Part shown: one piece after another, positions 6,086-62,562 of the stretch | How the letters are laid out: each line of letters begins with the position of its first letter | Position numbering within the stretch: the first letter of the stretch is position 1 | Source: Dehalococcoidia bacterium | Lineage (GTDB): Bacteria; Chloroflexota; Dehalococcoidia; Lucifugimonadales; UBA3495 | DNA length: 64,000 bases | Assembly (NCBI GenBank): GCA_965232815.1 | Contig: OZ247427.1 | Coordinates: 724,846-788,845 of the forward strand | Reading direction: 5' to 3' | Notes under the pieces: generated by a model | What the model saw: the letters and a program-made list of their open reading frames with translations, nothing else | Told to the model about the DNA's origin: nothing | The model's database searches: none | Made by a program: the position numbers and the translations under genes

Positions 6086-9000
6086 TGACCGCCATCCTGA
6101 ACCTCGGATACGTTTTGGCCCGCCGGCGACTGATGTCGTCCTTCCGGATCGAGCTAACGGTTTTGCTCGGGGTCACGCTGGCCGTGGTGCTGTTGGCCAG
6201 CGCGGTGGTATTCAACGACCTCCTGGCGGAAACCGCGCTGCGCAGAACGCTGACGGAATCCGAATCTGGCGACGTCAACATGTGGGTACGGGTGTTCAAC
6301 GACCTGGATGATCCACGCACCGCGACCGCCGCCAGTGATAGATACCGGAACGCCCAGCGATTCGTGGCACAGCGCGTGCTGCCGCCCCTGGGTGACGCCA
6401 TCGGCGCGACGTCTTTCCAGGTGGAAACCGCGACCTTCTACTTTACCGGCAAACCCAACCTCGACCTGCCCAACGACGTGCGGCCCCGAGGTCGCGTGCA
6501 GTATTTGTCCGGGTTCCAGGAGGGTAAAGGACGGTTGGTGCAAGGACGGTGGCCCGGCGTCTCCGGTGACGGCGGCTACGATGACGCCACGGGCGCCACC
6601 GACAACATAGTGATCGAAGTGGCGGTGGATCAGACCGGTTTCGAGTTCCTGGGGGTCCCGTTGGGCGAAGGATTCGGAATCATACCGGCCACAGGAGGCG
6701 ATGGGCAACCCACCACGCAGGTTGTGCTCGTGGGCATCGTCGAGCCCACCGATCGGGATGAGGAATACTGGTACCGTCGCGACAAACTGCTCTCGTATCA
6801 CGATGACGACTGGACGCTGGTACCGCTGTTTGTGTCGGAGGAGGGCCTGCGTCAGCAAATGGCGCGGCGATACCCGGGCATCTACACCAGTTCGGCGTGG
6901 TTCCTGCAGGTCGACCGCAACGGCCTGCCGGCTAAGAAGGTGGACGAGTTCCAGTTGTCCTTACGGCAGGTGCGACGCAACGTGGCAAACTTCCTGCCCA
7001 ACGGCAGCACGTCCACCGGCCTCGTAAGGATATTGGAGGACCATGAGGAACGACTCCTGCTGGCCCGCATACCGTTGTTCCTGATGGTGTTCCTGGTCAC
7101 GGGGATACTCGCGTACTACCTGACCATCACCGGCGGCATGGTGATCCGCGCCAGGGCCGCTGAAATCGCGATGTTGAAAAGCAGGGGGGCGACGACATTC
7201 CAGATTGGCGTGCTAACGTTGGTGGAGGGATTCCTTCTGGCCGTGCCGGCGGTGGTGGTCGGGGTTCTGGTATCCCCATTGTTGGCCAAGGCCCTGGGCG
7301 GTCTGGTGTTTGACGCGGCATCGTCGGGGGCGCCCGTTTCCCTCTCCTGGCAGGCGCTGGGCATGGGCGCGGCCGGCGCAGCGCTGGCGGTGCTCGTGTT
7401 GTCATTGGCGACCCTGGCGGCCGCCGGCAAGAGCATCGTCGAGTTCAGGCAGGCCGGCGCCCGGCCCGCGCAAACACCGTTCGTTCACCGGTATTACCTG
7501 GACCTGCTGGCTTTGGTTGTAATCGCGTTCCTGTGGTGGCAGATCTCCAACCGGGGAACCGTGCTCACGCGCAGCCTGGGCGGCCGAGAACTTGAGATAG
7601 ATTTCGCGTTGCTGTTGGGGCCTGCTTTGGGCCTGATCGCCCTGGGCCTGCTGGTGATGCGCTTTTTCCCCATGGCCATGGGATTGCTGTCTCGGGCGGT
7701 GGGCCCCGTGGGTCCCGGCTGGCTGGTGCAGGGCCTGCGTCACATCGCCCGCGACCCCATTGCGCCGGGCAGTCTGGTTGCCCTGCTCATGCTGGCGACC
7801 GCCCTGGGCGTGGTGGGCAGCGCGTTTTCGGCCACGTTGACGCAGAGCCTGGACGATAGAGTCCGATACGAGACGGGGGCCGACATACGCGTCCAGCACG
7901 ACGCCGGACGCATCCCGCGAGCCTATTCCGGCGCCTCCAACCTGGTGCCCAATTCCGCCGAGGTGATGCGAACCGAAGGCAGCCTCTTGACCGAGGGTTT
8001 TGGCTCGCAGCGGGTGTCGGTGCTGGGAGTGGAGTCGGAACGACTGGCCGACGTCGCATGGTGGCGAGAGGACTTCGGGGACGGAAACACTCTGCCCGAT
8101 TTGATGGCCCAGATCACCCCCAACCCGGACGCTCCGGACGGGATTCCATTGCCCGAGAACGTGACCGGTCTCTCGCTGTGGGCTCGCACCGGCGCTCTGC
8201 CGAACCGATTGATCAACGTATCGGCCCGGCTGCGAGACGACGCCGGCCGTCACTACGACATACCGATGGGAGACGTGACCGGCAGGGATTGGCAGAAACT
8301 GGAAGGGGACATCGCTCTGCGCCTGGGACGGACCGGTCGGCCCACAGAGGACGACCAGCGTCCCCGGGTGGACGTGCCGCCGCACACATTCATCAATCTG
8401 CAAATAGTGGGGCGTACCGGTGGCGACAGGCCCGGTGTGGTTTTTCTGAGTGAGTTGATCGCGCATACGCCCCAGGGCGATGTTGTGGTTGACCCGTTCA
8501 ACACCGCGGATGAGTGGACGGTGATCGAGGATTACGTCCGGCCCGGGCTCTACTCTTTCGAAACCAGCCGAAACGTCTCCCGCACCGGAACGGGCGGCTC
8601 GACCGTGTTCAGCTGGTCGCCAGGCGGAATCGGCGCGCCGGGCGTGAGACCGGGTTCCACCACGCCGCCATTGCCGGTGGTGGTCAGCCCCGAGATCCTG
8701 GACGCCGCCGGAGCAGAGGTGGGAGACACCATAAATCTCGGATTGTCCACCTTCGCCCTACCCGTGCAGATCAACGGCGTCACGGATTTCTTCCCCACCG
8801 TGGACCCGCGGGAGCAGCCGTTCGTCATCGCGGATCTGGGCGCGTTCGTGAACTATTCGAACCAGCACGGACGCCGCATTTTTGGCGGCGCGAGCGAGCT
8901 TTGGGTAGACCGTGAGATCCCGCTTGGCGATCTCACTCGGGCCCAGGCCCAAGCTGAAGCCACGGCCAACGCAATCCACAATATCGGAATAAACACCGGC

Positions 9001-9546: not shown

Positions 9547-10446
9547 CTAAACCAGACCCAGGCTGCGGCACATCTCCAGCATCGCCTTGGCGGTTTCCTC
9601 GTGGGCCACGTCAACCATGTCGCCGGCGTACGTAACGGCGGCAGTGCCCAGCCTCCGGCTTTCATCCATTGCGTCCAGCAGGCCTTGCCAGAACGCGATT
9701 TCCTCGGGCGATGGCGTGAATATCTCGTTCACGATGGGCACATGGGACGGGTGGATCAGGTGCATCCCGGTATAGCCCAGCGCCTTAAGATTGTTGGCCC
9801 AGAACCGCAGTCCGTCGAGGTCGCGGATGTCGAACCAGCCGCCGCTTATGGGCCACTGTATGCCGGCGGCGCGGCTGTCAATGAGCACCTTGCTCCGTAG
9901 ATACAGAGTCTCCGCTCCCTCCAGGGTCCAGCGGTAACCGACGCTCCTTGCGGTGTCGCCGCCCTTCCCGCCGCTGCCGCCCATGTGGGCCACGCGGTCC
10001 GATGCCATGGCGATGTCGTAGGCCATGCGGATGCCCGAGGCGGTTTCCAACCCGGGGTCGATGCAGACGGTGTTCAGTTCCATGCCCGCCTTGCGCTCGA
10101 AATACCGCAGCAGCACGTCTGCCTCCACCACGTCGGCCGGCGACTCCACCTTGGGCAGCAGGATTCCGTACAGGCCGGGCCGGGTCACCGCTTCCAGATC
10201 GAATCCGGTCAGTCCGGTTTCCAGCCGATTGACGCGTACGAACAGCGTCTGGCCGCGTTCCGAAAGTTCGTCGATCATCCTGGCCACCACCGGACGGGCG
10301 GCGTCCTTGTCATACTCCGGCACCGAGTCTTCCAGGTCTAGGATGAGCGCGTCCGGACCGTACTGGGGCGCCTTGCGCATCCAGTCCTCCTTGTTGCCAG
10401 GGACGAACATGACGGAGCGCAGGGGTTTCGTGGTGATGCGTGGCAT
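9547..10446 (-). CDS. HpcH/HpaI aldolase / citrate lyase beta (CitE)-like, malyl-CoA-lyase-type enzyme
   Basis: The motif RSVMFVPGNKEDWMRKAPQYGPDALILDLEDSV is a typical CitE-family N-terminus. The start is ATG 10446 with GGAGGA 9 nt upstream; the ORF track start 10479 is less likely. Confidence 0.8.
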   Translation of the reverse strand: MPRITTKPLRSVMFVPGNKEDWMRKAPQYGPDALILDLEDSVPEYDKDAARPVVARMIDELSERGQTLFVRVNRLETGLTGFDLEAVTRPGLYGILLPKVESPADVVEADVLLRYFERKAGMELNTVCIDPGLETASGIRMAYDIAMASDRVAHMGGSGGKGGDTARSVGYRWTLEGAETLYLRSKVLIDSRAAGIQWPISGGWFDIRDLDGLRFWANNLKALGYTGMHLIHPSHVPIVNEIFTPSPEEIAFWQGLLDAMDESRRLGTAAVTYAGDMVDVAHEETAKAMLEMCRSLGLV

Positions 10447-10549
10447 TGATTGGTTTCCTCCGGGGCGATTTATTCTCACATGGATGATTGGGGCACTCGG
10501 GATAGCGCCGCTTTGGTTGCTACGCTCTGCGACGGCGTTGGACCAGGGA

Positions 10550-11776
10550 TCAGATCACGTCGTCCGCCCTCAGCCGCTCCAGTTCCGCAGCGTCGACGCC
10601 GCACAACTCCCCGAATACGTCGGCGTTGTGCATCCCCAGAGACGGCGCGCCGGGAACGTCGGGCAAGGGCTGGCCATCAAATAGCACTGGGAATCCGGCG
10701 ACCACCTCGTCCACCTCTTCGTCGAACGTGGCGTTGAGCATCGGACGGAGCGCGCCGCGATCCCTGAAGTGGGGGTCGGCCAGAATCTCGGGCACGGTGC
10801 GAACCGGTGCGCAGGGCACGTCGCCGGCCGACAGGCACTCCAACGCCTCGGCCCGGGTCATCTTGCCGATGCGTTTCTGTACCTCGGTTCTGGCGGCGCC
10901 GGCGTTCTCCGAGCGAACCTGGTAGCGCGCGAACCGCTCGTCCTCGATCAAATCGGGAGTGCCGATGGCGTTGCACAGGCGACGCCACTGGTCGTCGCTG
11001 GCCGCCGTGATGATTATCGCGCCGTCGCTTGCGTTGTACTGTCCGGTGGGCCCGCTGCGGCTGTTGTTGCCGGTGCGCAACGGGATGCCGGCAGCCATGT
11101 CTTCTTCCAGATTCTCCATCAGCATGAGCGAGGTCAGGGTATCCATCATGGAAACGTCGAGATAGGATCCCTTACCGGTGCGCTCCTTCTCACGCAGGGC
11201 GGCCAGGATGCTGGTGGCGGCGAACATGGGCGTTACCAGGTCGCCGATGTAGAAGCCGACGCGGGTGGGCGGACCATCGGGTTCGCCGTTGATGTCCATG
11301 AGGCCGCTCATGCCCTGGATCTGAGGGTCGTGGGCCGGTTGGTTAGCATAGGGCCCGGTCTGGCCGTAGCCTGAAATGCTGGCGTAGATGACGCCGGGAT
11401 TCACCGCTGCCACGTCGTCATAGCCAAGACCCAACCGCGTCATGGAGCCGGGGGCCAGGTTTTCCAGCACGATGTCCGACTGCCGCGCCATCTCGAGGAA
11501 CAACTCGCGACCCCTGTCGCTCCTGAGGTTCAGGGTAACGCTCTTGACGCCCTGGCTGCGCTTGAGGAAACGGGTGGCGATGTATTTTTCGGACCGCTGC
11601 TCCGGAAAGATCCCGTCGGGACCGGCAAACGGACCGTTGCCGCGCACCGGATCTCCTCGCCCGGGTATTTCCACCTTGATTACCTCGGCGCCCAGGCGGG
11701 CCAGGGTCATGCTCAGGAACGGTCCGGCCAGGAACACGGTAACGGCCAGAACCCTCAAATCCGAAAGCGGCTGCAT
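10550..11776 (-). CDS. Family III CoA-transferase (CaiB/BaiF)
   Basis: The N-terminus has PLSDLRVLAVTVFLAGPFLSMTLARLGAEVIKVE, and the catalytic-Asp region reads ..AHDPQIQGMSGLM... Starting at ATG 11776 puts GAAGGAG 6 nt upstream. Confidence 0.85.
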   Translation of the reverse strand: MQPLSDLRVLAVTVFLAGPFLSMTLARLGAEVIKVEIPGRGDPVRGNGPFAGPDGIFPEQRSEKYIATRFLKRSQGVKSVTLNLRSDRGRELFLEMARQSDIVLENLAPGSMTRLGLGYDDVAAVNPGVIYASISGYGQTGPYANQPAHDPQIQGMSGLMDINGEPDGPPTRVGFYIGDLVTPMFAATSILAALREKERTGKGSYLDVSMMDTLTSLMLMENLEEDMAAGIPLRTGNNSRSGPTGQYNASDGAIIITAASDDQWRRLCNAIGTPDLIEDERFARYQVRSENAGAARTEVQKRIGKMTRAEALECLSAGDVPCAPVRTVPEILADPHFRDRGALRPMLNATFDEEVDEVVAGFPVLFDGQPLPDVPGAPSLGMHNADVFGELCGVDAAELERLRADDVI

Positions 11777-12297
11777 GCGCATCTCCTTCTCGCAATCGCC
11801 CAGCCCGATGAGGCGTGACGGAGCGGATTCAACCCGATTGCAGCCGGATTATACACGGGGACTTTGCCTCATCCTGGTCCGCCCATGCAACTATGCTCTA
11901 TGGATGGTAGGTGAAAAACGGCATCGATCCTGGCTAATGGAGGCCCGAAGCAGGTCATCATGCCCGGGCCAAAAATTTGGACCCGTCCTTTTGGGGGGTC
12001 TCGATGCGCAAAAGCCAATGTCCACGCTGGTGACATCGTAGCCTACCTTCGCCAAGCGGGCCGCAGTCGCCGTACCCAATCCAATAACCGTTGTTTTCGC
12101 ACCATAGTCAACGTCCGTTTCGTTCGTGATTCCCCCGTACGCGACCAGGGGATGCCCTGACGTTCACTGCAGCAAGGAGCGTATCGGGCGGTAATTGTTG
12201 CTTCCGCGGGGCGTCGTGCATATAACCCCAAACAGCGCCATAACTCGTCAGCTCTCACTAGGAGGTCGTGCGCTCAACTGCAATTGTCCAGCCAACT

Positions 12298-13656
12298 TCA
12301 GATTATCTCGTATATCGACCCATGATTGGGAAGGAAAAACTTGGCGTAGGTCTTTTGGGCGTAGTCGTCAGTCATTCCGGAGATATAGTCGGCAACCCTC
12401 CTTGCACGCTCCCTTTCGCTAGTATCTGATCCCAACCCGTCCTGCCAGTCATCGGGCAAAAAATGGTATTCGTCAAAAAATTTCTTGAACAAAGCCCGGA
12501 TGATATATTTCCCTTTAGCTTCCAAAACCCGTACTTGCGGGGCTGTAATGACAAAATACCAGATTATTTTGTTGACCAAATCAATCTCAATTTCTTTGTC
12601 CCTTGGCATTTCGACGTTGTACAGATAGCGCGATGATACGCAATTAGAAACCCGATGCTCCACACGAACACGTTCCGCAGCGGTAACATATCGGTGGATC
12701 AGTTTCGTAGTCATCTCTTTACGGAATGCACGCTGATTATCGTAGTCGAATTTGCTAGCATTAGTTGTAATACTGGGATTAAATTCATATAGCATTTCAA
12801 CTACATCATTATACAAACTATCAATATCTTCGTCCTCAAATTCAAGTTTCAGGTCTCGCAATACACGCGACATGCGCGTATCGCTACGGGAAAATGTAAA
12901 AGCGTCGATATATTTTGCATGGAGCCCGTCTTCAAGATCGTGAACCGCATAGGCGATATCGTCAGCTTGATTCATAATTTGGCATTCAAAGGAACGCGCT
13001 TTAGCTTCATCGCAACCAGCTTCGATTCGAGCGTCGTGACTTGCCCAGTCGGCGAATGGAAGATCATCGGCGTAAATGAATTTCCTGAAATTTTCATAAG
13101 GAGCGTTTTTGTACTTGAGTTGGGCGTCGATTACTGCCCTCGTTAGGTTGAGACCATGGTATGCAGTGCTTTTCTTTTCGAGCTCATTTATCAAACGAAC
13201 ATTCTGAGCGTTAGCCTCGAATCCGCCATAATTGACCATCAGTTTTTTGAGTTCATCTTCTCCGGCATGTCCAAATGGAGGATGCCCGATATCGTGGAGC
13301 AACGCAGCTGCTTCAACTAATTCAGTATTAGCCCCCAGCCGGAGGGCCAACCCTTTGGCGATCTGCCCAACTTCCAGAGAATGAGTTAACCGCGTTCGGT
13401 AGAAATCACCCTCGCCCGATGTGAAAACTTGAGTCTTGCCTTGCAGACGACGAAACGCGGCAGAGTGAATAATGCGCGCCCGATCCCGTTCGAATTCAGA
13501 CCTTTCCTCATCATCCGATTTAGGCCCTTCGCAGATTCTGCGTTCTTTATCGTGCGCCGTATATTTGATACTGTCAGGTTCAATCGAATTTCGCACGTCC
13601 GGATACCTCGCATTCCTTGGTTTAGAACTGGTAGACTTGCGCTGGTTAGAAATCAT
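12298..13656 (-). CDS. dGTPase-family HD-domain dNTP triphosphohydrolase (Dgt-like)
   Basis: RSEFERDRARIIHSAAFRRLQGKTQVF..RTRLTHSLEVGQIAKGLA..AALLHDIGHPPFGHAGE and the C-terminal ADYISGMTDDYA are hallmark Dgt-family motifs. The gene is strongly AT-richer than its neighbours (37 G+C per 100 nt at 12541-12640). Confidence 0.85.
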   Translation of the reverse strand: MISNQRKSTSSKPRNARYPDVRNSIEPDSIKYTAHDKERRICEGPKSDDEERSEFERDRARIIHSAAFRRLQGKTQVFTSGEGDFYRTRLTHSLEVGQIAKGLALRLGANTELVEAAALLHDIGHPPFGHAGEDELKKLMVNYGGFEANAQNVRLINELEKKSTAYHGLNLTRAVIDAQLKYKNAPYENFRKFIYADDLPFADWASHDARIEAGCDEAKARSFECQIMNQADDIAYAVHDLEDGLHAKYIDAFTFSRSDTRMSRVLRDLKLEFEDEDIDSLYNDVVEMLYEFNPSITTNASKFDYDNQRAFRKEMTTKLIHRYVTAAERVRVEHRVSNCVSSRYLYNVEMPRDKEIEIDLVNKIIWYFVITAPQVRVLEAKGKYIIRALFKKFFDEYHFLPDDWQDGLGSDTSERERARRVADYISGMTDDYAQKTYAKFFLPNHGSIYEII

Positions 13657-13825
13657 TCGCAGAGTCCAGTATCCAATCTTAGCAAACGAGTGTCATCCCT
13701 GTTCGGATGGATCATGCTGGGCACACTGGCGAAATCCTCGTAAGTCTCGAGTAGCTACCGGAAACTGGCGCAATCAATTTTTCAGGCGATCCATAATCAA
13801 CCGATCGCTGCCAGCGAGTAGTCCC

Positions 13826-14035
13826 TTGTGTCGAAGCATCAAAACCCTGCGCCGTTCCGGCGAGCCCGCCACCGACGAAGAGATCCAGGCGGCGGCGTTG
13901 CAATTCGTCCGCAAAATCAGCGGATACCGGCAGCCGTCCAGGATAAACGCGCCCGTGTTCGAGCAGGCCGTGGACGACGTGGCGCAGGCCGCCCGAGACC
14001 TGCTGGACTCGCTGCAAACCCCGGCGTCGCGCTGA
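13826..14035 (+). CDS. DUF2277 family small protein
   Basis: The tail of ORF 13472..14035 reads (L)CRSIKTLRRSGEPATDEEIQAAALQFVRKISGYRQPSRINAPVFEQAVDDVA. That matches the DUF2277 pattern MCRNIKTL..PATDEEI.AAALQFVRK.SG. The start is assigned to TTG 13826. Confidence 0.65.
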   Translation: MCRSIKTLRRSGEPATDEEIQAAALQFVRKISGYRQPSRINAPVFEQAVDDVAQAARDLLDSLQTPASR

Positions 14036-14039
14036 CCCA

Positions 14040-14372
14040 ATGCTGAACCTCACGCCAGCGGAGGCCAGCCGCATCTGCATGGACGAATGTCGCGCCATGT
14101 GCTGTCGCGGACCGATTATCCTGCGGTTGGCGCCGGACGAGGTTGCCGGATTTTACCGGGCCTCTGATCGGCTGGGCGGAACCGTCACCATCACACGCAC
14201 GCCAGACGGCGGCGGAAACGTCCTGTTCCTGGAGCAGCCGGGCGAGGCGTGTCCCATGCTGGACACCGCAACATCCGCCTGCCGTATCTACGACGAGCGC
14301 CCGCGAATCTGCCGGGAGTTTCCGCGCAAGCCTGAGCCCGGCTGCGCGATTTCCGGCTGGACCGACGATTAA
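14040..14372 (+). CDS. YkgJ-family cysteine-cluster (zinc/iron-chelating) protein
   Basis: C-x2-C-x3-CC near the N-terminus (CMDECRAMCC), plus C..C and RPRICREFP as in the UPF0153/YkgJ family. Confidence 0.7.
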   Translation: MLNLTPAEASRICMDECRAMCCRGPIILRLAPDEVAGFYRASDRLGGTVTITRTPDGGGNVLFLEQPGEACPMLDTATSACRIYDERPRICREFPRKPEPGCAISGWTDD

Positions 14373-14437: not shown

Positions 14438-15655
14438 TCAGCCCGCCGTGTACCGCGCCGCCTCTTCCGATCCTCCCGTAGCATCGCCCTCGCTGTAGGA
14501 GTGCGCACCGGCGCCGGCCAACGCGCCGCCCTGCACGATGAGATACTCCTCACGGATGGGGCGACCGTCGAGCCAGCATTCCAGGATCTCCCGGACGCCG
14601 GCGGCATAGCGAGCCTGGGCGGACAAAGACGTGCCGGACGTGTGGGGCGTCATCGCGTGGTTGGGCATTGAGCGCCAGGGATGGTCGTTGGGCGCCGGCT
14701 GGGGGAACCAGACGTCTCCCGCGTAGCCGGCCAACTGGCCGCTCTCCAGTGCCCGCACGATGGCCTCGCGGTTGCAGATCTTGCCCCGCGCGGTGTTGAC
14801 GATGTACGAGCCGCGCTTCATCCGGCCGATCAACTCGTCGTTGAACATATCCTCGGTCTCGGGATGCAGCGGGCAGTGGATGCTGACCACGTCGCACACG
14901 CTGACCAGGGATTCGACGGTAGGGTGGAACGTCGCGCCCAATTCGGATTCGACCTCGGCGGGCAGACGGTGGCGGTCGGTGTAGTGCAGGTTGACGTCAA
15001 AGGGCTTCATCCGCTTGAGCACCGCCAGACCGATGCGGCCCGCTGCCACCACGCCCACGTCCATTCCCTCGATGTCGTACGAGCGCGAGGCGGCGTCCGC
15101 GATATTCCAGCCGCCACGCATGACCCAACCGTACTGGGGGATGTAGTCGCGGACGAGGGCCAGCATCTGCATCACGGCGTGCTCTGCCACGCTGATGCTG
15201 TTGCACCAGGTTACCTCGGCCACCGTGATGCCGCGATCGATGGCTGCCTGCAGGTCCACGTGGTCTGAGCCGATACCGGCGGTGATGGCCATTTTCAGAT
15301 TCGGGGCCTTTTCGATGCGCTCTGCCGTGAGGTACGCCGGCCAGAAGGGCTGCGAGATGACCACGTCGGCGTCAACCAGTTCACGCTCAAAGACCGAGTC
15401 CGGGCCATCCTTGTCGGAGGTAACCACAAACTGGTGCCCGCGCCCCTTCAGAAACTGCTCCAGCCCCAGCCCGCCGGACACCGAGCCCAGAAGATGGCCG
15501 GGCGTAAAGTCCAATGATGCAGGCGAGGGCAGGGTTTGCCCATCGGGGTACGTGCTCAACGCGGGGATGGTCTGGCGCGCATAGTCGGGGGGAAAACCCT
15601 CCACTGGATCGTCGTAGAGAACGCACAGGACTTTCTGGCCGGAATTGGAACTCAT
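14438..15655 (-). CDS. fdh: NAD-dependent formate dehydrogenase
   Basis: The product is colinear with Pseudomonas sp. 101 FDH. Shared blocks are KVLCVLYDDPV.G.P, GSVSGGLGL, DKDGPDSVFERELVDADVVISQPFWPAYLT, TAGIGSDHVDL, CNSISVAEH, GYAGDVWFPQPAP.DHPWR and EYLIVQGGALAG.GAHSYS.G.ATGGSEEAA. GGAGG lies 6 nt upstream of the ATG. Confidence 0.95.
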   Translation of the reverse strand: MSSNSGQKVLCVLYDDPVEGFPPDYARQTIPALSTYPDGQTLPSPASLDFTPGHLLGSVSGGLGLEQFLKGRGHQFVVTSDKDGPDSVFERELVDADVVISQPFWPAYLTAERIEKAPNLKMAITAGIGSDHVDLQAAIDRGITVAEVTWCNSISVAEHAVMQMLALVRDYIPQYGWVMRGGWNIADAASRSYDIEGMDVGVVAAGRIGLAVLKRMKPFDVNLHYTDRHRLPAEVESELGATFHPTVESLVSVCDVVSIHCPLHPETEDMFNDELIGRMKRGSYIVNTARGKICNREAIVRALESGQLAGYAGDVWFPQPAPNDHPWRSMPNHAMTPHTSGTSLSAQARYAAGVREILECWLDGRPIREEYLIVQGGALAGAGAHSYSEGDATGGSEEAARYTAG

Positions 15656-15840
15656 CGATTACCTCCTTGGCAGACGCCCAGACCTCAAAGTTTTTTGATA
15701 GTTTTGAAATTTCGCCTACTTTATCGCGGGGGACCGCCATGCGCAACGTGACCGCACGCCAACTACGGGGCAATTCTGGGGAATCCAACCGTCGGCGCAG
15801 CCAACGCCGGAGAGTGTCTAACGCGCCGGTTTGGTTATCG

Positions 15841-15957
15841 CTAACTCTCGTCCCTCCGCGAACGCCTGGCATTTCGCTCTATGAGGTACTCGGTGAACCA
15901 TCCGATGCCAAACGCTATCGCAACGCACACCAGGATGTAGCCATATGGTTCCGCCAT
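15841..15957 (-). CDS. Possible 38-aa single-pass membrane micro-protein
   Basis: Found by hand, since it is below the ORF-track size cutoff. It reads MAEPYGYILVCVAIAFGIGWFTEYLIERNARRSRRDES from ATG 15957 to TAG 15841. It has one hydrophobic helix and a basic tail, a weak RBS, and sits in the 620-bp gap upstream of fdh. Confidence 0.25.
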   Translation of the reverse strand: MAEPYGYILVCVAIAFGIGWFTEYLIERNARRSRRDES

Positions 15958-16277
15958 GATAAGCACCCATGCAAAGGGTCGGTTATATCCCGACCACTGT
16001 ATGCACTGTAATACGTCCGCCGGTAGCGCGCGGATTGACCATCGGTGGCTGGAAGGTACTCACCTGCGCTCAATGGACGCACCATCCGAGGGCGGGATGG
16101 GCGTTCACCGGCTCTTCTCGGTCGAGCGTTGTCCGCCTCGATAGCACCCGGGTTGGCCGAGGCTATGCAGACATGATTAAGCGATGACGCAGAAACTGGA
16201 ATACCTGTATTCCAACGTTCCGCCATCGCCCCATGTAGGCGTAACGGGAACTCTGGCAATCGGATACACGGGCACCA

Positions 16278-20472: not shown

Positions 20473-20943
20473 ATGACATTTGAACAACAGATGGAACAAT
20501 TCTCCATGGCACACATCCGAGCTGTGGCGGCCCGGGCAGGTTACCAGCTGACCAGGGATGAAACGGATACCGGATTGGACGGCACATTGAAGGGCGACGG
20601 CCCAGGCCGGCCCAGGATCGATTTCCAAGCGAAATCAACTTCTGTTGACATCCGAATAGATGGCCATCTGCACTTCCCATTGCCCGTGCACAACTACGAC
20701 ATACTCCGTGATACGAATGCCGTATCGCCTTCCATCTTGATTGTTGTGCTGATCCCACGCGACGAAAGCGAATGGACCACGCAGACTACGGAACAACTTT
20801 GCCTGCGCCATTGCGCTTATTGGCTTTCACTGGAAGGTCAACCACCCGTGCCCAACACAACCAGCATTACCGTCCATGTTCCGGTTGGCAACGTATTCAA
20901 CAGTGATCAATTGCAGTTGTTGATGAACCAGAGTATCGGGTAG
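20473..20943 (+). CDS. DUF4365-type PD-(D/E)xK (restriction-endonuclease-fold) protein
   Basis: 156 aa. The pattern E..F.MAHIRAVAARAGY......TDTGLDGTL....G....IDFQAKST.. followed by ..PSILIVVLIP fits DUF4365 (D-x-G-hD ... hQxK). GC is lower (50 per 100 nt at 20641-20740). Confidence 0.65.
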   Translation: MTFEQQMEQFSMAHIRAVAARAGYQLTRDETDTGLDGTLKGDGPGRPRIDFQAKSTSVDIRIDGHLHFPLPVHNYDILRDTNAVSPSILIVVLIPRDESEWTTQTTEQLCLRHCAYWLSLEGQPPVPNTTSITVHVPVGNVFNSDQLQLLMNQSIG

Positions 20944-29632: not shown

Positions 29633-29926
29633 TTGACGACAATGGCGGACTTGGAAACAAAATTCCATCAGGAGATGCTCCGGATATACGATGAGGCGGT
29701 TAAGCTCCGGTATCATCCGACACGCTTCTTGCAAATGGTCGAAGAACACGGCGGTCGCGAAGCGGCGAAGCGACTTCTGGCAGGAGATACTCTGTCCAGT
29801 GGTTTTGTGCGCTTGTTCGAACTCGGTAGGACAGACCTGACGGTCGAATCGTTGGTCTTGAAAGAACCGTGGACCCAATTGTTCACGGACGATGAATTGA
29901 GCGAAGCGGAGCGTCGGCTCGCCTGA
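29633..29926 (+). CDS. Hypothetical 97-aa protein (conserved-looking small helical protein)
   Basis: It starts 1 nt (TTG 29633) or 10 nt (ATG 29642) after the SDR stop. The product reads ..KFHQEMLRIYDEAVKLRYHPTRFLQMVEEHGGREAAKRLL..GRTDLTVESLVL..LFTDDELSEAERRL. GC is lower (48 per 100 nt at 29651-29750). Confidence 0.5.
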   Translation: MTTMADLETKFHQEMLRIYDEAVKLRYHPTRFLQMVEEHGGREAAKRLLAGDTLSSGFVRLFELGRTDLTVESLVLKEPWTQLFTDDELSEAERRLA

Positions 29927-30044
29927 ATTCCGGCGTACCCAGGCTTGGGTTCGTCAAATTGCGCTGCATTGGCAGGGGCGGGTTTTGCAACCCGCCTCAA
30001 TATCATCGGATAAATGCAATCCATTGACCCGAAGGAATCAAAAC

Positions 30045-41942: not shown

Positions 41943-44300
41943 CTAGTCATCCTGTCCCTCGCGACTCACACCGCCGACCGGCTCTGCCGCTATTTCCTCG
42001 TCATCGTCGTCCAGATGCAGATCCGGCACCTGAGGAGCCTCCAAAGGCAACCCGATAACCATTTCGGTATATTCCCCGGCCTGCGATTGCACCTCGATGG
42101 TGCCGCCGTGCTCCCGGATAATGTCGTTGCATATCGAGAGGCCGAGTCCAGTGCCTTGCCCGGTGGGTTTGGTGGTAAAGAAGGGATTGAAGATCTGTTC
42201 GATGATGTCCGGCGGCATCCCGCTGCCGTTGTCCCTAATCCTCACCTCGACGTGGTCTTCCATACGTCGTGTGGTCAGGGTCAACGTGGGCATGTAACCG
42301 TTATCGCCGCCGGATTCCACCAGGTGGCGTCGTCTTTCGTCAGTGGCGTAGCAAGCGTTGCTCACCATATTCAGGAACACCCGACCGATATCCCGAGGAT
42401 TGATGTTGATATCGTCCATTTCCTCGAATTCGTACTGCAGGTCCAATTGGAAATCGGAATCCAGCGCCCGGGCGCTGTGGTATGCGAGACGCGCATGCTC
42501 ATCCAGCAGGTTGTTAACGCTGCTCATCTGGTGGGTGACGGACTCACGACCCATCAGCAGCATGTCCTGCACGATTCGATTCGCCCGGTCGCCGTGCATC
42601 CGTATGCGTTCCAGGTTTTCGGTCAGGTCGGAGAAGATGTCATCAATCAGGCCCTTTTGCTCGTCATCCAGCGCTCCGTCCTCGTTCTCGTCCAGGGTTT
42701 CGCGCATTTCGACCAGCAACTCCTCAGACGATTCGGAGAAGTTCTTGACAAAATTCAACGGATTCCTGATCTCGTGAGCTACGCCAGCGGTCAGCTGACC
42801 CAGCGAGGCCAGTTTCTCCTGCGCAACGATGCGGTCCTGCGCCGCCGTCAGGTTTTCCAAAACCTCTTCCAGCTCGTGGTTCTTGCCGTCCAGTTCGGCG
42901 TTGATGCCTTCGAGTTCGGCGTTTTTGCCTTCCAGCTCCTCAGCCAGTTGCTCAACCAGGTTCAACCGGATCGCCTCTTGAGCGTGGCGACGGAATACCT
43001 CCAACGCCGCGGCCATGTCGGCCACCTCATCACGCCCGCCGATGTCGACTTCGGCGTCCAAGTCTCCGCCCGCCATTCTTCGCATCCAGCCGGACAGCAA
43101 CTCCAAGCGACGCAGGAGCACCCGGCCCACGAAAAGCCAGGCAATCAGCAAGCCGCCGCCGATGCTGATCAAAGTGATTACGATCAGCAGCAGGCGGCCC
43201 GTGAATATCGCCTGCGACGCGGCATCGGTCGCGACCTGGGCGCCCGCCTCGGCTCCAACCACCAAAGCGTCCACCTCGTCGATCAACAACGCCGCGATCA
43301 ACTGGTTGTTTTCAAGCAGCAATTCCTGGCGTTCGGACAAGGCCAACTGTTCAGCGCGAACGCTGAAACCGTTCCCGTCCGCCAATCCCATTTCAAGCAA
43401 CCGTTCGAATTTCGGGGCGATCTCATCATGCAACGGCGTCCCTCTCAACTGGAACAGGTTGCTTTGGATGTGATGCGCGGACGATTCAAACCGTTCCCGC
43501 AGCGGTTCAATGAGCGACGGCTCCGAAATGATCGCCGCGCTGGACAAAAGCTGCGTCGCGATATTCGCATTGGATCGCAATTCTGCCAGGTGCCGGTATC
43601 GTTCCAGCTGTGCTTCTGACAGGTGCTCCGTCCGTGCCACCTTCGGTTCGTTCAGTTCCTGAAAGCCCGTGACCGTGAAGAAGAGTTGGTCATCCATCTC
43701 CCCCACGATGATGCCGTTGAGTTCGAATCGCAGTTCTTCCAGTTCCGCCCCCATTGTGGCCGACTGATCGCTGAGGGTGAAATTGGACCAGATGCTGTTG
43801 TTGATACCGGCAATGTTATCGATCAACGCCCCCGAATAGGTGTGTATGCGACCGAACCTCGCCTCCTCGCCGCCACGGCCTTCCAGGATGGACAGTTGCT
43901 CGTTGAAGGACTCGTGTGCGTCGGCGATCTGAACTCCCACACCGGCCACTTCATCGGGCGTGGCCGCAACGGATAGCTCTGCGGCCGCTGCAACCAGGTT
44001 ATTGCTGTACTGCGCAACACCGAACGCGGCGGCCAGTTCCGGTACGCTTCCCTCATTGACACGTGTCTGCGCCGCTGCTACCTGGTTGAACGAAATCCAC
44101 CCAACGAGGCAGGCCGCAAAGGTCAATGCGACCGCGCCTCCGATCGCCAGGTAGAGTTGGGCCGATATCCGGAAACGCAGCTCCAGAATGTCCCTGGGCC
44201 GCAACTGCCGAGCTTTTCGGCCGAGCTCGGGGATTCCGCTCAAGTTCGGGCTTCGGAGCCTACGGCCCAGTTCCCGAAGCTTGCCGATCTTCTGCTTCAT
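41943..44300 (-). CDS. Membrane sensor histidine kinase (large extracytoplasmic domain, HAMP, coiled coil, HisKA, HATPase_c)
   Basis: Two TM segments flank a roughly 330-aa sensor. The HAMP is ..RRMAGGDLDAEVDIGGRDEVADMAAALEVF... A heptad coil follows (ELEGKNAELEGINAELDGKNHELE). The H-box is AGVAHEIRNPLNF, and the N/G boxes are ..NACYA.. and ..TKPTGQGTGLGLS... Confidence 0.85.
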   Translation of the reverse strand: MKQKIGKLRELGRRLRSPNLSGIPELGRKARQLRPRDILELRFRISAQLYLAIGGAVALTFAACLVGWISFNQVAAAQTRVNEGSVPELAAAFGVAQYSNNLVAAAAELSVAATPDEVAGVGVQIADAHESFNEQLSILEGRGGEEARFGRIHTYSGALIDNIAGINNSIWSNFTLSDQSATMGAELEELRFELNGIIVGEMDDQLFFTVTGFQELNEPKVARTEHLSEAQLERYRHLAELRSNANIATQLLSSAAIISEPSLIEPLRERFESSAHHIQSNLFQLRGTPLHDEIAPKFERLLEMGLADGNGFSVRAEQLALSERQELLLENNQLIAALLIDEVDALVVGAEAGAQVATDAASQAIFTGRLLLIVITLISIGGGLLIAWLFVGRVLLRRLELLSGWMRRMAGGDLDAEVDIGGRDEVADMAAALEVFRRHAQEAIRLNLVEQLAEELEGKNAELEGINAELDGKNHELEEVLENLTAAQDRIVAQEKLASLGQLTAGVAHEIRNPLNFVKNFSESSEELLVEMRETLDENEDGALDDEQKGLIDDIFSDLTENLERIRMHGDRANRIVQDMLLMGRESVTHQMSSVNNLLDEHARLAYHSARALDSDFQLDLQYEFEEMDDININPRDIGRVFLNMVSNACYATDERRRHLVESGGDNGYMPTLTLTTRRMEDHVEVRIRDNGSGMPPDIIEQIFNPFFTTKPTGQGTGLGLSICNDIIREHGGTIEVQSQAGEYTEMVIGLPLEAPQVPDLHLDDDDEEIAAEPVGGVSREGQDD

Positions 44301-45592
44301 TGGGACGCCCTCCGCCGCGGGTTCAGGGTCTTGATCGGGACATACCCGCCGTCATCCGCGATCGTAGTCAGGAATACGGTATCGGAACCCTGGTTGTCGT
44401 TGTCTCCGTAGCGCAGTACAAACCCGTCCAGGTCAATCGGTTCGGGACTGTAAAGTTGCTCCAGGAAACACTGCCGGTCCACCTCTCGACCGCACCTTTC
44501 CAAACCGGCGATTGCCAACCGGCCGGCCAGATACCCCTCTAAAGAAACGAAGCCTGGAATCGCGTCGCTGTCATGTTCAGCAAGCGATTCCAGATAGGAC
44601 GACACGATGGGAACGGAAACGTCGGTCGGGAACGGCACCACTTGCGTGACGTAGACCCCGGCGCCTCCGGCGCCCAATTCCTCCGCCAAGGCATTGCTGC
44701 CCACGAACGACACGGTCATGAATTCCCAGTCTTCGCCGATGTGCCGCGCCCAGGCAATCAGCGACGCCACCGGCCGATACGCCCCGATTATGATCACCGC
44801 CTGTGGGTCGCCCCTTTTCAGGTCCAGCAGCCCGGTTTTTACCGCGGTGGTGTTTCTGGGATAAAGCCCGACGGAGACCGGTTGCATATCCCGCCGGTTC
44901 AGCGCCTCCCTCGCCCCCTGGTAGCCGGCCCGTCCGAACGAATCGTCCTGGTACATCACTGCGATGCGCGTGATGCCCAGGTCGCCCGTCAACCGCGCCA
45001 CCATCTCCTCGGTTTCCTGGTTGTACGACGACCGCATGTTGACCACGTTGGGCAGGTTGCTCGCGTCCCTCAGAAACGCCGCGCCCGTAAATGGCGCGAT
45101 ATACGGTATTTTCGCCTCGCGCGCCACCGGGGTTGCAGAACGGGAAGTCGGCGTCCCAACCGCCCCGATTAGGGCGAAGACACCGTCGTCTATGAGTTGC
45201 GTCGTGTTGGCGATCGCCAGCTCAGGTTCGTATGTGTCGTCCAGCGAAGTCAGTTCCAGTTGCCGTCCGTGGACTCCGCCATTCCGGTTGGCCTCGGCGA
45301 ACGCCGCTTCGATGCCGAGCTTCATCCCGGCTCCCAACTGGCTCGCCAAACCGCTGAACGCCGCGGATTGGCCAAAAAGGATCCGGTCGTCAAATACGCC
45401 GGGAGATCCTGCTCCCTGGGGCGTCCGGGTTAAAGAAGCCTCAGTCGCAGCGCTGACGCCGGTAGCGGTGTCTGGTCTGAGTGATGCATCAGGAGTATCG
45501 CCGCCACAACTGGCGATACCCAAGGCAACCAAAACAACTACGACGGCATGTCGTAATACCCAGCCTGCTGGTAGGTCGAGTATTCTCCTCAT
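44297..45592 (-). CDS. Type-1 periplasmic solute-binding lipoprotein (LivK/Peripla_BP_6-like)
   Basis: The lipobox is LVALGIASCGG. ..FGQSAAFSGLASQLGAGMKLGIEAAFAEANRNGGVHGRQLEL.SLDD.YEP..A...T.QLI.DD.VFALIGAVGTPTS... ATGA overlaps occur at both ends (45589-45592 and 44297-44300). Confidence 0.8.
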   Translation of the reverse strand: MRRILDLPAGWVLRHAVVVVLVALGIASCGGDTPDASLRPDTATGVSAATEASLTRTPQGAGSPGVFDDRILFGQSAAFSGLASQLGAGMKLGIEAAFAEANRNGGVHGRQLELTSLDDTYEPELAIANTTQLIDDGVFALIGAVGTPTSRSATPVAREAKIPYIAPFTGAAFLRDASNLPNVVNMRSSYNQETEEMVARLTGDLGITRIAVMYQDDSFGRAGYQGAREALNRRDMQPVSVGLYPRNTTAVKTGLLDLKRGDPQAVIIIGAYRPVASLIAWARHIGEDWEFMTVSFVGSNALAEELGAGGAGVYVTQVVPFPTDVSVPIVSSYLESLAEHDSDAIPGFVSLEGYLAGRLAIAGLERCGREVDRQCFLEQLYSPEPIDLDGFVLRYGDNDNQGSDTVFLTTIADDGGYVPIKTLNPRRRASQ

Positions 45593-46002
45593 CCGCCCTT
45601 GCGCTTGACCATCGCCAACCGGTTCTTTCCGTCCTCCCGGCTGTAATGCAATTCGTCCATCATTTCCCGCACCAGGTGGATGCCGAGGCCTCCGATGGGC
45701 CGGTCCTCCAGTGATGCTTCAAGATCCGGTTCCATCGCGTCGTTCAGTGGGTCGAAAGGCCGACCGTCGTCGGAGATCTCCACTCGAACCTCGTCCGCGT
45801 CAGCATCCAGGGATACCTCTATCTCGCTGGCCTCGCCGCCGTAATTGACGATATTCACGCTCAATTCGTCCAGCACCAGGTTCACTTTAAAAATCAGATC
45901 CGGCGGCCAGTCGTCTTGCTCCCCCAGATCCTCCACTATCGCTGCGATTCGTTCCAGTTGGTCCAACGTCGGAGCGATTTTTAGGGATGCTGATGCGCTC
46001 AT
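45589..46002 (-). CDS. RsbW/SpoIIAB-like anti-sigma-type serine kinase (HATPase_c)
   Basis: The inner ATG 46002 lies 2 nt after the upstream stop. Motifs are ..VNLVLDELSVNIVNYGG.., ..ISDDGRPFDPL.., ..GGLGIHLVREMMDEL.Y.R.DGKN.L... Confidence 0.75.
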   Translation of the reverse strand: MSASASLKIAPTLDQLERIAAIVEDLGEQDDWPPDLIFKVNLVLDELSVNIVNYGGEASEIEVSLDADADEVRVEISDDGRPFDPLNDAMEPDLEASLEDRPIGGLGIHLVREMMDELHYSREDGKNRLAMVKRKGG

Positions 46003-46004
46003 TA

Positions 46005-47171
46005 TCAACCCTCTGTGCACCTCAGAGCCAAACAAGTTATATCGTCAAACTGAGGAGCATCTCCGGCGAACTCGGTCACTGTGTCGAATATCGACTCAAT
46101 GGTCGTACGGCAATTATCCATTGGCGAGTCGAAAATCTCCAACAGACGATCCATGCCGAATTCTTCGCTTTGGTCGTTGAATGCTTCGGTAACGCCGTCT
46201 GTGTAGAAAACAACCGTATCGCCCGGCGAGCAGGTGACGCTGGCTTGCTCGAAGTCCGCTCCGTCCATCACCCCCAACGCGATTCCGTTGGTGCTCGGCA
46301 GGACGGTGTGCGTGCCATCTGCGTGAATCAAAACCGGAAGTGTGTGCCCACCGTTGGCGTAGGTCAAAACCCTGCTCTGCGGGTCATACACCGCGTACAG
46401 CAACGTCACGAACATCATCGCTTCGTTGTCCTCGTACAACAGTTGGTTTACCTCGTTCAGCACTTTGGCCGGGTCGTATAGGCCGATCGCAGTTCCTTTC
46501 AACAACGTCCTGCTGGCCATCATGAACAGGGCTGCCGGCACTCCCTTGCCCGACACATCAGCTATGGCGAGGCCGAGGTGCCCATCCTCCAGGTTGAATA
46601 TGTCGAAGAAGTCTCCCCCTACTTCCCTCGCCGGAGTCATGTTCCCGCAGACTTCATAGAACGGCGATTCGGGAAATTCGGTCGGCAGAATACTTTGCTG
46701 CATCTTGCTGGCAATATCCAGCTCGTTCTCTATCGCCACCAACCGCATGCGCGAAGATTCCGCTTGACGCCACGCTTGCAGGTTGTTGAGCGTTCGCTCG
46801 ATGGTCACCCTCAAGTCGTCGAAGTCCAGGGGTTTGGTTACAAAGTCAAACGCCCCGCGGTTCATCGCAGCCCGAATGTTTTTCATGTCCCCATAGGCTG
46901 AGATGATCACCGACCGGGTGTCCGGCGCCACGTCCGGAATCCGCTCCAACAGTGAGAGGCCGTCCATCTGTGGCATGTTGATGTCCGACAGGACCATGTC
47001 AATGTCCGCGTCCTGCCCCAGTTTCTGTAACGCCTCTACTCCGTTCTGTGCGAAAACAAACTGGTACTGGCCCGAGCGGATACTCCGGCGCATCCTCTGC
47101 AGGACCAGCGGCTCCAGGTCGGGCTCATCGTCGACCACCAGTATGCGATATGCTCCTGCCGCCTCATCCAT
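46005..47171 (-). CDS. Response-regulator receiver fused to a PP2C (SpoIIE/RsbU-type) phosphatase
   Basis: The REC is RILVVDDEPDLE....MVLSDINMPQMDGLSLL...VIISAYGD..FDFVTKPLDF. The PP2C is ..PAREVGGDFFDIF.., ..LAIADVSGKGVPAALFM.., ..VVFYTDGVTEA.., and ..QFDDIT.... Confidence 0.85.
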   Translation of the reverse strand: MDEAAGAYRILVVDDEPDLEPLVLQRMRRSIRSGQYQFVFAQNGVEALQKLGQDADIDMVLSDINMPQMDGLSLLERIPDVAPDTRSVIISAYGDMKNIRAAMNRGAFDFVTKPLDFDDLRVTIERTLNNLQAWRQAESSRMRLVAIENELDIASKMQQSILPTEFPESPFYEVCGNMTPAREVGGDFFDIFNLEDGHLGLAIADVSGKGVPAALFMMASRTLLKGTAIGLYDPAKVLNEVNQLLYEDNEAMMFVTLLYAVYDPQSRVLTYANGGHTLPVLIHADGTHTVLPSTNGIALGVMDGADFEQASVTCSPGDTVVFYTDGVTEAFNDQSEEFGMDRLLEIFDSPMDNCRTTIESIFDTVTEFAGDAPQFDDITCLALRCTEG

Positions 47172-47245
47172 GATCTCATCCTCCGCAGTTATCCCGTACC
47201 AATCAGGCTATCAGCGCGGCGCGCCAACTTCGCCACCACCACCAC

Positions 47246-47584
47246 TTAGCCGCTGACGGCTGCGATCGCGTCCTCTTGCGAAGAGTGAATATCGATCACT
47301 CGGTCAAACCCGCTGATTTCGAAAACTTCCCGAACAGTACCGGAGAGTGAACAGATCGCGAATTTGGCATTCTGCTGTTGCAGCTTCCTCGCGGTCTGCA
47401 GGATCACGCGTAGACCCGCACTACTTATGTACGCCAGCCGTTCCATGTCCATAACCACTGCCCGGTCATCAGACTCGATGGCGGAATCCAACTCCTGGTA
47501 AAAAGCCTGGGCGTTGGCGCTGTCGACGCGCTCTTCGGTCTGAATGATCAGAGTTCCGTTGTCCCTTCGTGATTCGATAGGCAT
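47246..47584 (-). CDS. STAS-domain anti-anti-sigma factor (RsbV/SpoIIAA-like)
   Basis: ..VVMDMERLAYISSAGLRVILQTARKL..... carries the conserved phosphorylatable Ser in the DxxxxxxISSxGL context. 112 aa. Confidence 0.85.
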   Translation of the reverse strand: MPIESRRDNGTLIIQTEERVDSANAQAFYQELDSAIESDDRAVVMDMERLAYISSAGLRVILQTARKLQQQNAKFAICSLSGTVREVFEISGFDRVIDIHSSQEDAIAAVSG

Positions 47585-53344: not shown

Positions 53345-53764
53345 GTGACGTCAACTCAACAAAAAGCGGAGCGGTGGATCATATTGCCCGGATCAACCGT
53401 CGGGGGTGAAGTGGGCATTTTCAGTGTTGATTTCACCATTCGACACCGTAACGGAGACAAAACACATGCTCTGAATGGCGTGGTCGACTCTGGCTCTTCT
53501 TTTGTGATCATCCCAGATCACGTGCTCGATGAAATGGGTGTCGAGCGGGAAGATCAGGCTTTGTTCAGGCTTGCCGACGGTTCCGTGCGCGAAATGTCCA
53601 TCGGGGAAACTTTGTTGGATCTGGACGGCAGGACGAAAACTGTTCAGGTGGTCTTTGGTACGGACACCCGCAAGGTGCTGCTGGGTGCCATGGCCCTGGA
53701 AGCGTTCGGTTTGGCGGCCGACGCTAAAAACCACCGGCTCATTCCTGCAGAGTTGACCCTCTAA
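53345..53764 (+). CDS. Retropepsin-like clan AA aspartic protease (small single-domain type)
   Basis: ..ALNGVVDSGSSFVIIPDHVLDEMGV......F.LADGSV.....GE..LDLDGR.....VVFG.....LLGAMALEAFGL..D contains the D-S/T-G active-site triad (VDSGSS). The start is uncertain (GTG 53345 or GTG 53411). GC is lower (47 per 100 nt at 53421-53520). Confidence 0.6.
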   Translation: MTSTQQKAERWIILPGSTVGGEVGIFSVDFTIRHRNGDKTHALNGVVDSGSSFVIIPDHVLDEMGVEREDQALFRLADGSVREMSIGETLLDLDGRTKTVQVVFGTDTRKVLLGAMALEAFGLAADAKNHRLIPAELTL

Positions 53765-56577: not shown

Positions 56578-56624
56578 TAAACTGCAATACACTTACGGAT
56601 ACCCCCGCACGAAAGGTTGACGCC

Positions 56625-56861: not shown

Positions 56862-56872
56862 CGGCAATTGCG

Positions 56873-62482: not shown

Positions 62483-62516
62483 AAAAATATCGGGGGCGAC
62501 CGTGCTGGTCGTCCCC
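62483..62516 (-). terminator. Rho-independent terminator after gcvH
   Basis: On the minus strand, GGGGACGACC-agcac-GGTCGCCCCC (9 bp plus 1 bulge) is followed by GATATTTTTGT, 46 nt after the gcvH stop. Confidence 0.6.
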
Positions 62517-62562
62517 GAGTGCCAGTCGCAGCGCGCGCCGCGACCTCTATGTGTGCGCAGTT

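Follow-up and report, generated by a model that had tools for sequence, protein, structure and literature searches.

Background

The family of deoxyguanosine triphosphate (dGTP) triphosphohydrolases, phage defence by dGTPases, and variable loci flanked by core genes are already known. The closest described system is Sp-dGTPase, an anti-phage dGTPase of Shewanella putrefaciens CN-32 (Tal et al., bioRxiv 10.1101/2021.04.26.441389; structure 9P8W, PMC12265719). Tal et al. found that 53% of the homologues with at least 45% identity to Sp-dGTPase lie beside defence systems, as against 10% of those below this level (bioRxiv 10.1101/2021.04.26.441389). In the present study, we analyzed a 64-kb stretch of the genome of a Dehalococcoidia bacterium (contig OZ247427.1; hereafter, the window), in which an AT-rich, strain-variable cassette of 2,036 bp (11788..13823; G+C content (GC) 0.49) carries dgt (12298..13656, minus strand), a gene for a Dgt-family deoxynucleoside triphosphate (dNTP; probably dGTP) triphosphohydrolase of 452 aa. 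Like Sp-dGTPase, this is a single gene with HD and HD_assoc domains, the same H...HD...D and His/Glu residues, and a patchy distribution. Of the solved structures, that of Sp-dGTPase is the closest to the window protein by sequence (200.8 bits) and is also among its top structural matches (TM score 0.64). Unlike Sp-dGTPase, which is from Proteobacteria, it belongs to a Chloroflexota host and has metabolic neighbours and a highly divergent C-terminal helical region.

Other described systems share part of these features. Clover (CloA dGTPase and CloB nucleotidyltransferase; PMC12265719) contains a dNTPase of the same superfamily, and CloA is a structural match of the window protein (TM about 0.6); however, the cassette contains no partner gene, only a dehydrogenase pseudogene fragment, and the identity to CloA is about 20%. 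The housekeeping dNTPases Escherichia coli Dgt (4X9E, 6OIY) and Thermus thermophilus TT1383 (2DQB) have the same fold and catalytic motif, and TT1383 is fairly close by sequence (167 bits), whereas E. coli Dgt is distant (only 82 bits for 4x9e, and 142.1 bits with the E. coli-type model NF003429 / PRK04926, which has a cut-off of 405). These two enzymes are core and compositionally native, while the window dgt is accessory and foreign. The core-flanked hotspots (cDHS1 and cDHS2 of Pseudomonas aeruginosa, PMC10250203; E. coli, PMC10121019) resemble the locus in that variable content of lower GC lies between core genes, is present or absent depending on the strain, belongs to no single mobile-element family, and is presumably exchanged by recombination in the flanks. 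They differ in that the present site is a 2-kb, one-gene site with divergent alleles of that gene or nothing, and in that the cassette spans a divergent promoter region, so that each allele would supply the promoters of both flanks. Less ordinary are the one-gene, idiomorph-like organization with deep allele lineages across species, and the persistent deficit of about 35 points in GC at third codon positions (GC3).

Alleles and empty site at the dgt locus

The cassette fills the whole intergenic region between two divergent genes, a CaiB/BaiF-type coenzyme A (CoA)-transferase gene on the left (10550..11782, minus strand) and a DUF2277 gene on the right (13826..14035, plus strand). We found dgt at the same locus in three other assemblies (L001, L002, and L083), that is, in four together with the window. 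Between the window and L002, the flank proteins are 99.0-99.8% identical (the CoA-transferase 99.0%) and the Dgt proteins 64.1%. The corresponding values are 80-96% (the CoA-transferase 91.9%) and 85.5% for the window and L001, 87-97% and 67.9% for the window and L083, and 80-96% and 63-67% for the three pairs among L001, L002, and L083. At the DNA level, the left and right flanks of the window and L002 have identities of 0.964 and 0.966, respectively, versus only 0.616 for the cassette (11788-13823). These sequence comparisons argue decisively for conflicting histories of Dgt and its flanks.

Codon-based estimates for the window and L002 (synonymous divergence (dS) of 0.13-0.15 in the flanks; for Dgt, a proportion of synonymous differences (pS) of 0.84, past saturation, and a nonsynonymous divergence (dN) of 0.32) point to an old divergence of the two Dgt genes rather than to fast local evolution. 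The window and L001, from more distantly related species, both carry an allele of type A; here, the dS of Dgt is 1.41 and that of the flanks 0.76-1.24, and since the former is not lower than the latter, the allele may date back to the split of the two species. Among 5.8 billion proteins, the best non-syntenic relative of the window Dgt was at most 68% identical, and the best full-length relatives in JGI metagenomes were 45-48% identical (best 48%, L174). No close relative was found in phage and plasmid collections (best full-length match 37% in IMG/VR, 36.5% in INPHARED, and about 35% in PLSDB), which are poor in Chloroflexota elements and in which partial matches to the N-terminus only reach 48% (IMG/VR); thus, a phage or plasmid source is unsupported.

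L130 and L131, which are contigs of separate samples, have same-species flanks, with a CoA-transferase 98% identical to that of the window, and an unrelated 166-bp spacer stands in place of the cassette between the DUF2277 start codon and the CoA-transferase gene. Their homology to the window reaches, on the right, position 13824, 2 nt before the DUF2277 start codon, and restarts at 11787, at the AGGAG of the CoA-transferase gene. The two spacers are identical to each other and match nothing in the other fetched loci. Both contigs stop 80-110 nt inside DUF2277 (L130:1-289 and L131:1-262), just past the variable junction, which we infer to be a branch of the assembly graph produced by co-existing alleles. 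The species-level group has at least three states (allele A, allele B with 64% amino acid identity, and the empty 166-bp spacer), all with same-species flanks, showing patchy presence and fast turnover among close relatives; dgt is an accessory gene. The more distant genomes L132, L133, and L214 have an orthologous CoA-transferase (88-92%) with a molybdo-oxidoreductase neighbour and no dgt. The first-pass annotation, which was made from the letters of the window, had taken a gene that is syntenic and universally present in related genomes as the observation that would speak against its interpretation: the gene is syntenic in four assemblies, but its absence from L130 and L131 shows that it is not universal.

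Two further variable spots were noticed. In L133 and L215, which lack dgt, small open reading frames (ORFs) without a Pfam match lie between the CoA-transferase and CitE genes (L133:9224-10324, three ORFs of GC 0.49-0.54; L215:1725-2518, two ORFs called; the GC values are those of L133 only), and behind them comes a PfkB kinase gene of native GC (0.68 in L133). In the window, no gene separates CoA-transferase and CitE; these insertions constitute a second variable spot in the same operon. At another locus, with the order adh_short-CoA-transferase-enoyl-CoA hydratase-NUDIX, dgt lies upstream of the short-chain dehydrogenase/reductase (SDR) gene in L086 (8548-16001), and a 222-aa ORF without a Pfam match takes its place in L132 (11007-16173), which suggests a further presence/absence site of the same cassette family.

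The Dgt protein

The ORF at 12298-13656 on the minus strand is intact, and all four Dgt motifs reported for it in the first-pass annotation were located: RIIHSAAFRRLQGKTQVF at residue 61, RLTHSLEV at 89, LLHDIGHPPFGH at 119, and GMTDDYA at 427. The start codon is uncertain; an alternative GTG at 13596 gives 432 aa, the length of the closest homologue. The protein matches the Pfam domains HD (PF01966, E=4.4e-15) and HD_assoc (PF13286, E=3.2e-19), and it scores 325.6 bits with the dGTP triphosphohydrolase model TIGR01353 (cut-off 152.35), covering profile positions 1-388 of 389. The metal ligands and the catalytic dyad of Dgt enzymes are all present (H92, H121-D122, H130, E133, and D232); across 27 relatives, among which all three allele classes are represented, each of them is either invariant or conserved to at least 90%. 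Their spacing (H...HD...D, with the His/Glu pair at HD+9 and HD+12) agrees with CloA, whose H117, D118, H126, and E129 serve as the metal/catalytic reference (PMC12265719), and with Sp-dGTPase. By domains, full-length score, and catalytic residues, the sequence is assigned to the Dgt family.

The AlphaFold2 model of the protein has a mean predicted local distance difference test (pLDDT) value of 78 and a predicted TM score (pTM) of 0.79. Its top Foldseek matches are 7lwz (TM 0.65-0.67), 9p8w, and 2dqb, that is, the Vibrio cholerae dGTPase, the anti-phage Shewanella dGTPase, and the Thermus dNTPase, respectively; the predicted structure is a dGTPase fold. The nearest characterised relatives include both a dGTP-specific enzyme (Sp-dGTPase) and a broad dNTPase (TT1383). 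Between the window and L001, dN/dS of Dgt is 0.062, which indicates strong purifying selection on a working enzyme. The HD core (aa 61-180) has 83-100% identity between alleles, and the differences cluster at aa 241-360 and 391-420. In published structures, oligomerisation and allosteric control are assigned to the C-terminal helical region (PMC12265719); the variability of this region fits a diversifying surface facing regulators or inhibitors, but does not amount to evidence of positive selection.

Base composition of the dgt lineage

The GC of the cassette is 0.49, and that of its flanks 0.63-0.65. For dgt itself, GC is 0.458 and GC3 0.466, versus 0.64-0.67 and 0.78-0.84 in six neighbouring genes, so that the gene lies about 17 GC points and about 35 GC3 points below its host. 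It is the GC minimum among the 1,359-bp windows of the 64 kb, 6.3 standard deviations below the mean of the rest, and coarse and fine GC profiles agree on the anomaly. The composition shift described in the first-pass annotation therefore survives a proper analysis, with slightly different counts (39 and 74 G+C per 100 nt at 12541-12640 and 14441-14540, respectively, where 37 and 72 had been given).

This composition is shared by a whole clade. In 11 loci with fetched DNA, among them the window and loci of other genomic context, the Dgt genes of the clade (at least about 48% identical to that of the window) have a GC of 0.08-0.17 below that of their flanks (0.59-0.65), whereas homologues with 45% identity or less are mostly within 0.06 of flank GC, with the exception of L153 (41% identity, 0.10 below). 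In a neighbour-joining tree, read without L004 (its tblastn coordinates were out of frame, with 22 stops in the translation), the AT-shifted genes form one clade; in its sister group, the composition is native to the hosts, which have 44-48% GC. A GC3 of 0.45-0.54, against about 0.8 in the hosts, is kept even by alleles that are saturated in synonymous divergence. Because every sampled clade member in GC-rich hosts is AT-rich, the composition is a stable trait and not an un-ameliorated time stamp; it reflects membership of the mobile gene pool or a maintained state, and not the date of acquisition. Accessory genes in related loci are equally AT-rich (EcoRV endonuclease 0.44, methylase 0.51, and BrnT toxin 0.49), and core-flanked defence hotspots in P. 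aeruginosa are also lower in GC (PMC10250203). When synonymous sites that differ between the window and L001 were polarised with L002 and L083 as outgroups, 17 were usable, comprising nine AT-to-GC and eight GC-to-AT changes. This is consistent with compositional equilibrium, with the limitation that the sites are too few and too saturated to carry weight.

We tentatively suggest, as an idea that we consider rather unlikely, that active maintenance, rather than a leftover of transfer, accounts for the low GC of this Dgt lineage. One possible cause could be selection, in that rare codons throttle, or silencing restrains, a toxic enzyme that destroys dNTPs. Another possibility could be that the divergence between the alleles prevents their recombination, so that they escape GC-biased gene conversion (hypothesis in PMC4450053) and remain at an AT-biased mutational equilibrium, in an idiomorph-like manner.

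Edges and non-coding parts of the cassette

In the comparison with L002, the edges of the cassette are sharp and coincide with the ribosome-binding site of the CoA-transferase gene and the start codon of DUF2277. The islet proposed in the first-pass annotation (11777-13825) nearly matches this strain-variable segment, and the long gaps that it had described on both sides of the gene are 515 bp on the left (11783-12297) and 169 bp on the right (13657-13825). The start codon of DUF2277 is TTG in the window (13826-13828) and ATG in the empty-site allele (L130:107-109); thus, the cassette edge reaches the translation start of the neighbouring gene. At the edges, we found no terminal direct or inverted repeats and no target-site duplications, and the 64-kb window contains no Rfam family and no tRNA. 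Transposition or site-specific integration was considered as the likely mechanism and rejected, since edge repeats, tRNA, Rfam elements, and transposon or integrase hallmarks are all missing.

The upstream part of the cassette (13657..13825, 169 bp, GC 0.52) is non-coding. Its identity to the other alleles is 0.5-0.6, too low for an alignment, and no other locus contains a match to it. This part must hold the promoter of dgt and that of the divergent DUF2277-CxxC operon; it contains a weak sigma-70-like match (ATGACA-17-GATACT, 13696-13668, minus strand), and in a consensus scan for promoters and terminators the number of sites was not above the chance expectation. Since the cassette takes up the divergent region in which both flanking operons have their promoters, these must come with every allele, even the empty one.

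The downstream part (11783..12297, 515 bp, GC 0.57) is also non-coding, with no intact ORF homologous to anything. In L001, L002, and L083, the corresponding gap measures 455, 492, and only 104 bp, respectively. In an alignment of the gaps of the window, L001, and L002, the sole conserved block is GTGTATAATCCGGC, with an extended -10-like box, TGTATAAT (11848-11855, minus strand) / GTGTATAATCC (11848-11856, minus strand), 66-72 nt upstream of the CoA-transferase start. Judged from this conservation, the box TGTATAAT is likely the promoter of the CoA-transferase/CitE operon, provided by the cassette.

The same gap contains, on the minus strand at about 11891-12120, the start-less, Rossmann-like remnant that had been noticed in the first reading of the sequence. 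Its frame reads ..KTTVIGLGTATAARLAKVGYDVTSVDIG.. and has no start codon. It corresponds to the first 35-40 or so residues of the NAD-binding domain of a UDP-glucose/GDP-mannose dehydrogenase, with the Rossmann GxGxxG region at about 12014-12097, and this identification is weak (PF03721, E=0.12 in the window and E=5e-5 in the frame-corrected L002 copy, both under the gathering score). L002 has a homologous, frameshifted copy with about 70% DNA identity. The remnant appears to be a decayed N-terminal pseudogene fragment and, because a decayed copy is also present in the divergent L002 allele, an old hitch-hiking cargo of the cassette; its proposed role as a sign of recent local rearrangement does not hold, for the same reason. 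An SDR origin, as suggested by the adh_short gene that follows dgt in L086, was considered and rejected in favour of the UDPG_MGDP_dh_N N-terminus.

Defence, housekeeping, and other explanations

In our view, the cassette is an accessory single-gene dGTPase cassette, swapped by recombination in its flanks, and probably used for phage defence by nucleotide depletion, a reading that we hold with moderate confidence. That it is accessory and exchanged by recombination we regard as very probable; for the anti-phage function, which is argued by analogy, the balance is slightly favourable. The presence/absence and the allele turnover, a pattern usual among anti-phage genes, strengthen the defence reading. 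The neighbourhoods of homologues, which the first-pass annotation had proposed to examine, gave a divided answer. The clade member L084 lies beside an EcoRV-type restriction-modification (R-M) system, a HigB/helix-turn-helix (HTH) pair, and an insertion sequence (IS), with the EcoRV-type endonuclease (GC 0.44) and the D12 methylase (0.51) at L084:2483-4298, about 3 kb from dgt, between flanks of GC 0.62-0.67. The dgt of L085 is beside an IS and that of L086 between CoA-transferase and SDR genes, whereas the three syntenic relatives (L001, L002, and L083) have metabolic neighbours, as the window does.

An alternative possibility is a non-defensive Dgt that, like E. coli Dgt or TT1383, keeps the dNTP pools in balance or limits mutation, is dispensable or redundant and can thus be lost and replaced, and owes its composition and turnover to a recombination-prone intergenic site. 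Several observations weigh against the defence reading, and some of them are what this alternative predicts. The neighbours are metabolic, with no known defence gene in the immediate neighbourhood. With about 41% identity over 363 aligned columns (32% in Foldseek), the protein is too far from Sp-dGTPase to reach the 45% level, below which homologues are rarely beside defence genes (Tal et al.). The protein misses the NCBIfam anti-phage cut-offs (NF041026, 335.7 bits vs 400; NF003701, 285.8 vs 383), as do all alleles and the native-composition controls, and its NF041026 score is nearly tied with that of the housekeeping-type model PRK03007 (329.2 bits). The match with the PADLOC dGTPase model (414 bits, near-full coverage) is uninformative, since native-composition homologues of Chloroflexota and Binatia score equally (L010, L018, and L020, 413-433 bits). 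Furthermore, the six sampled loci with these flanks contain only dgt alleles or the empty spacer, not the alternation of different defence systems seen at hotspots; no close relative was found in the phage, plasmid, and IMG/VR collections; and the evidence for the empty allele comes from two short contigs, with no more than 80-110 nt past the junction. Purifying selection is compatible with any enzymatic role. As had been stated in the first-pass annotation, sequence classification does not separate defensive from housekeeping Dgt here, which the PADLOC and NCBIfam models with native-composition controls bear out. However, for a housekeeping enzyme one would not expect three states, including absence, in one species, nor saturated synonymous divergence where flank dS is 0.13-0.15, nor a clade-wide foreign composition in common with R-M and toxin genes, nor R-M, toxin-antitoxin (TA), or IS neighbours in other genomes. 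We consider the non-defensive alternative possible and, on the whole, unlikely.

The first-pass annotation had explained the gene as a recent horizontal acquisition, in which case a single unameliorated gene would have come from an AT-rich donor, with local rearrangement leaving the remnant. Horizontal exchange and accessory status are supported by the absence from L130 and L131 and by the 64% allele in L002; what is not supported is the recency. The strong compositional anomaly, the native composition of the sister clade in hosts of 44-48% GC, and the lack of the cassette in some same-species contigs would all fit a recent arrival, but the same allele type is at the same position in another species (L001), with a dS of 1.4 that is not below that of the flanks, and three further deep allele lineages, at the same or other sites, all have a GC3 of 0.45-0.54 despite saturation. 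In addition, no non-syntenic donor above 68% identity was found among the 5.8 billion proteins, and the divergent L002 allele carries the remnant as well. The comparisons with L001 and L002 largely refute this explanation, which we regard as improbable. Less probable still, to the point of being almost negligible, is an assembly or binning artefact, that is, a chimeric join of low-GC DNA into a GC-rich contig: metagenome-derived relatives do break at the junction, but the same order with an AT-rich dgt is found in four independent assemblies, on contigs of 204 kb, 338 kb, and 3.7 Mb (the window's own protein), and the promoter and start signals of the flanking operons are integrated with the cassette edges.

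If the preferred reading of a recombination-exchanged defence cassette is correct, the simplest mechanism is that homologous recombination within the conserved flanks replaces one state of the locus by another, in the manner of core-flanked defence hotspots, and that fluctuating or frequency-dependent phage selection keeps several deep allele lineages as well as the loss. By analogy with Sp-dGTPase, Dgt would hydrolyse dGTP (or dNTPs) to deoxynucleoside and triphosphate, and removal of dGTP or dNTPs during infection would starve phage DNA replication. The variable C-terminal helical region (aa about 241-420) could be a regulatory or oligomerisation surface for phage cues or inhibitors.

Flanking genes and other low-GC features

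The order of genes at the locus is DUF2277-CxxC-formate dehydrogenase (FDH)-electron transfer flavoprotein (ETF), dgt, and CoA-transferase-CitE-FtsX-FtsX. The CoA-transferase (Pfam CoA_transf_3 in orthologues) probably starts at the second ATG (11776), behind AGGAG, and is followed by a gene for a CitE/HpcH-like lyase (9547-10479). On the other side, DUF2277 (PF10041, E=3.7e-27) is followed by a gene for a CxxCxxCC-domain protein (14040-14372; PF03692, E=5.8e-9). About 620 bp of non-coding DNA (15656-16277) separate the formate-dehydrogenase-like and ETF genes; this gap shows a conservation of about 0.85-1.0 with L002, and it is expanded in L001 with two extra ORFs (L001:5419-6102 and 6931-7320).

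Other features of the window with low GC were also observed. A 156-aa ORF at 20473-20943 (plus strand) with a DUF4365 domain (E=5e-16) has a GC of 0.53 in a region of about 0.63, which makes it a further small, compositionally foreign gene, with a possible accessory or defence function. At 56529-57205 (plus strand), adjacent DUF433 (110 aa, GC 0.57) and DUF5615 (110 aa, GC 0.51) genes, also below the surrounding GC, form what we take to be a TA-like module. Three ORFs without a Pfam match (62166-62639, plus strand, 157 aa; 29713-30024, minus strand, 103 aa; 53393-53734, minus strand, 113 aa), with a GC of 0.53-0.55, may be further accessory islets or no genes. At 41943-47584 (minus strand), a signalling cluster of slightly lower GC (0.55-0.61) contains a HAMP histidine kinase, a periplasmic binding protein, a response-regulator-SpoIIE phosphatase, and a STAS-domain protein (partner-switching module).

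Conclusions

Since sequence models fail to split defensive from housekeeping Dgt, the population-genetic behaviour of a gene (presence/absence, deep alleles between identical flanks, and stable foreign composition) can be used to flag candidates. The three-state locus also offers alleles for the comparison of phage specificity or escape from inhibitors. That GC stays low despite saturated divergence is of interest for the debate over selection versus biased gene conversion. If lack of recombination between alleles is the cause, the locus would amount to a natural experiment on the determinants of GC content in bacteria, and to a long-lived, trans-species balanced polymorphism at a gene of nucleotide-depletion immunity. 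If the defence reading is true, nucleotide-depletion immunity of the SAMHD1 and Sp-dGTPase type would reach the uncultured soil Chloroflexota.

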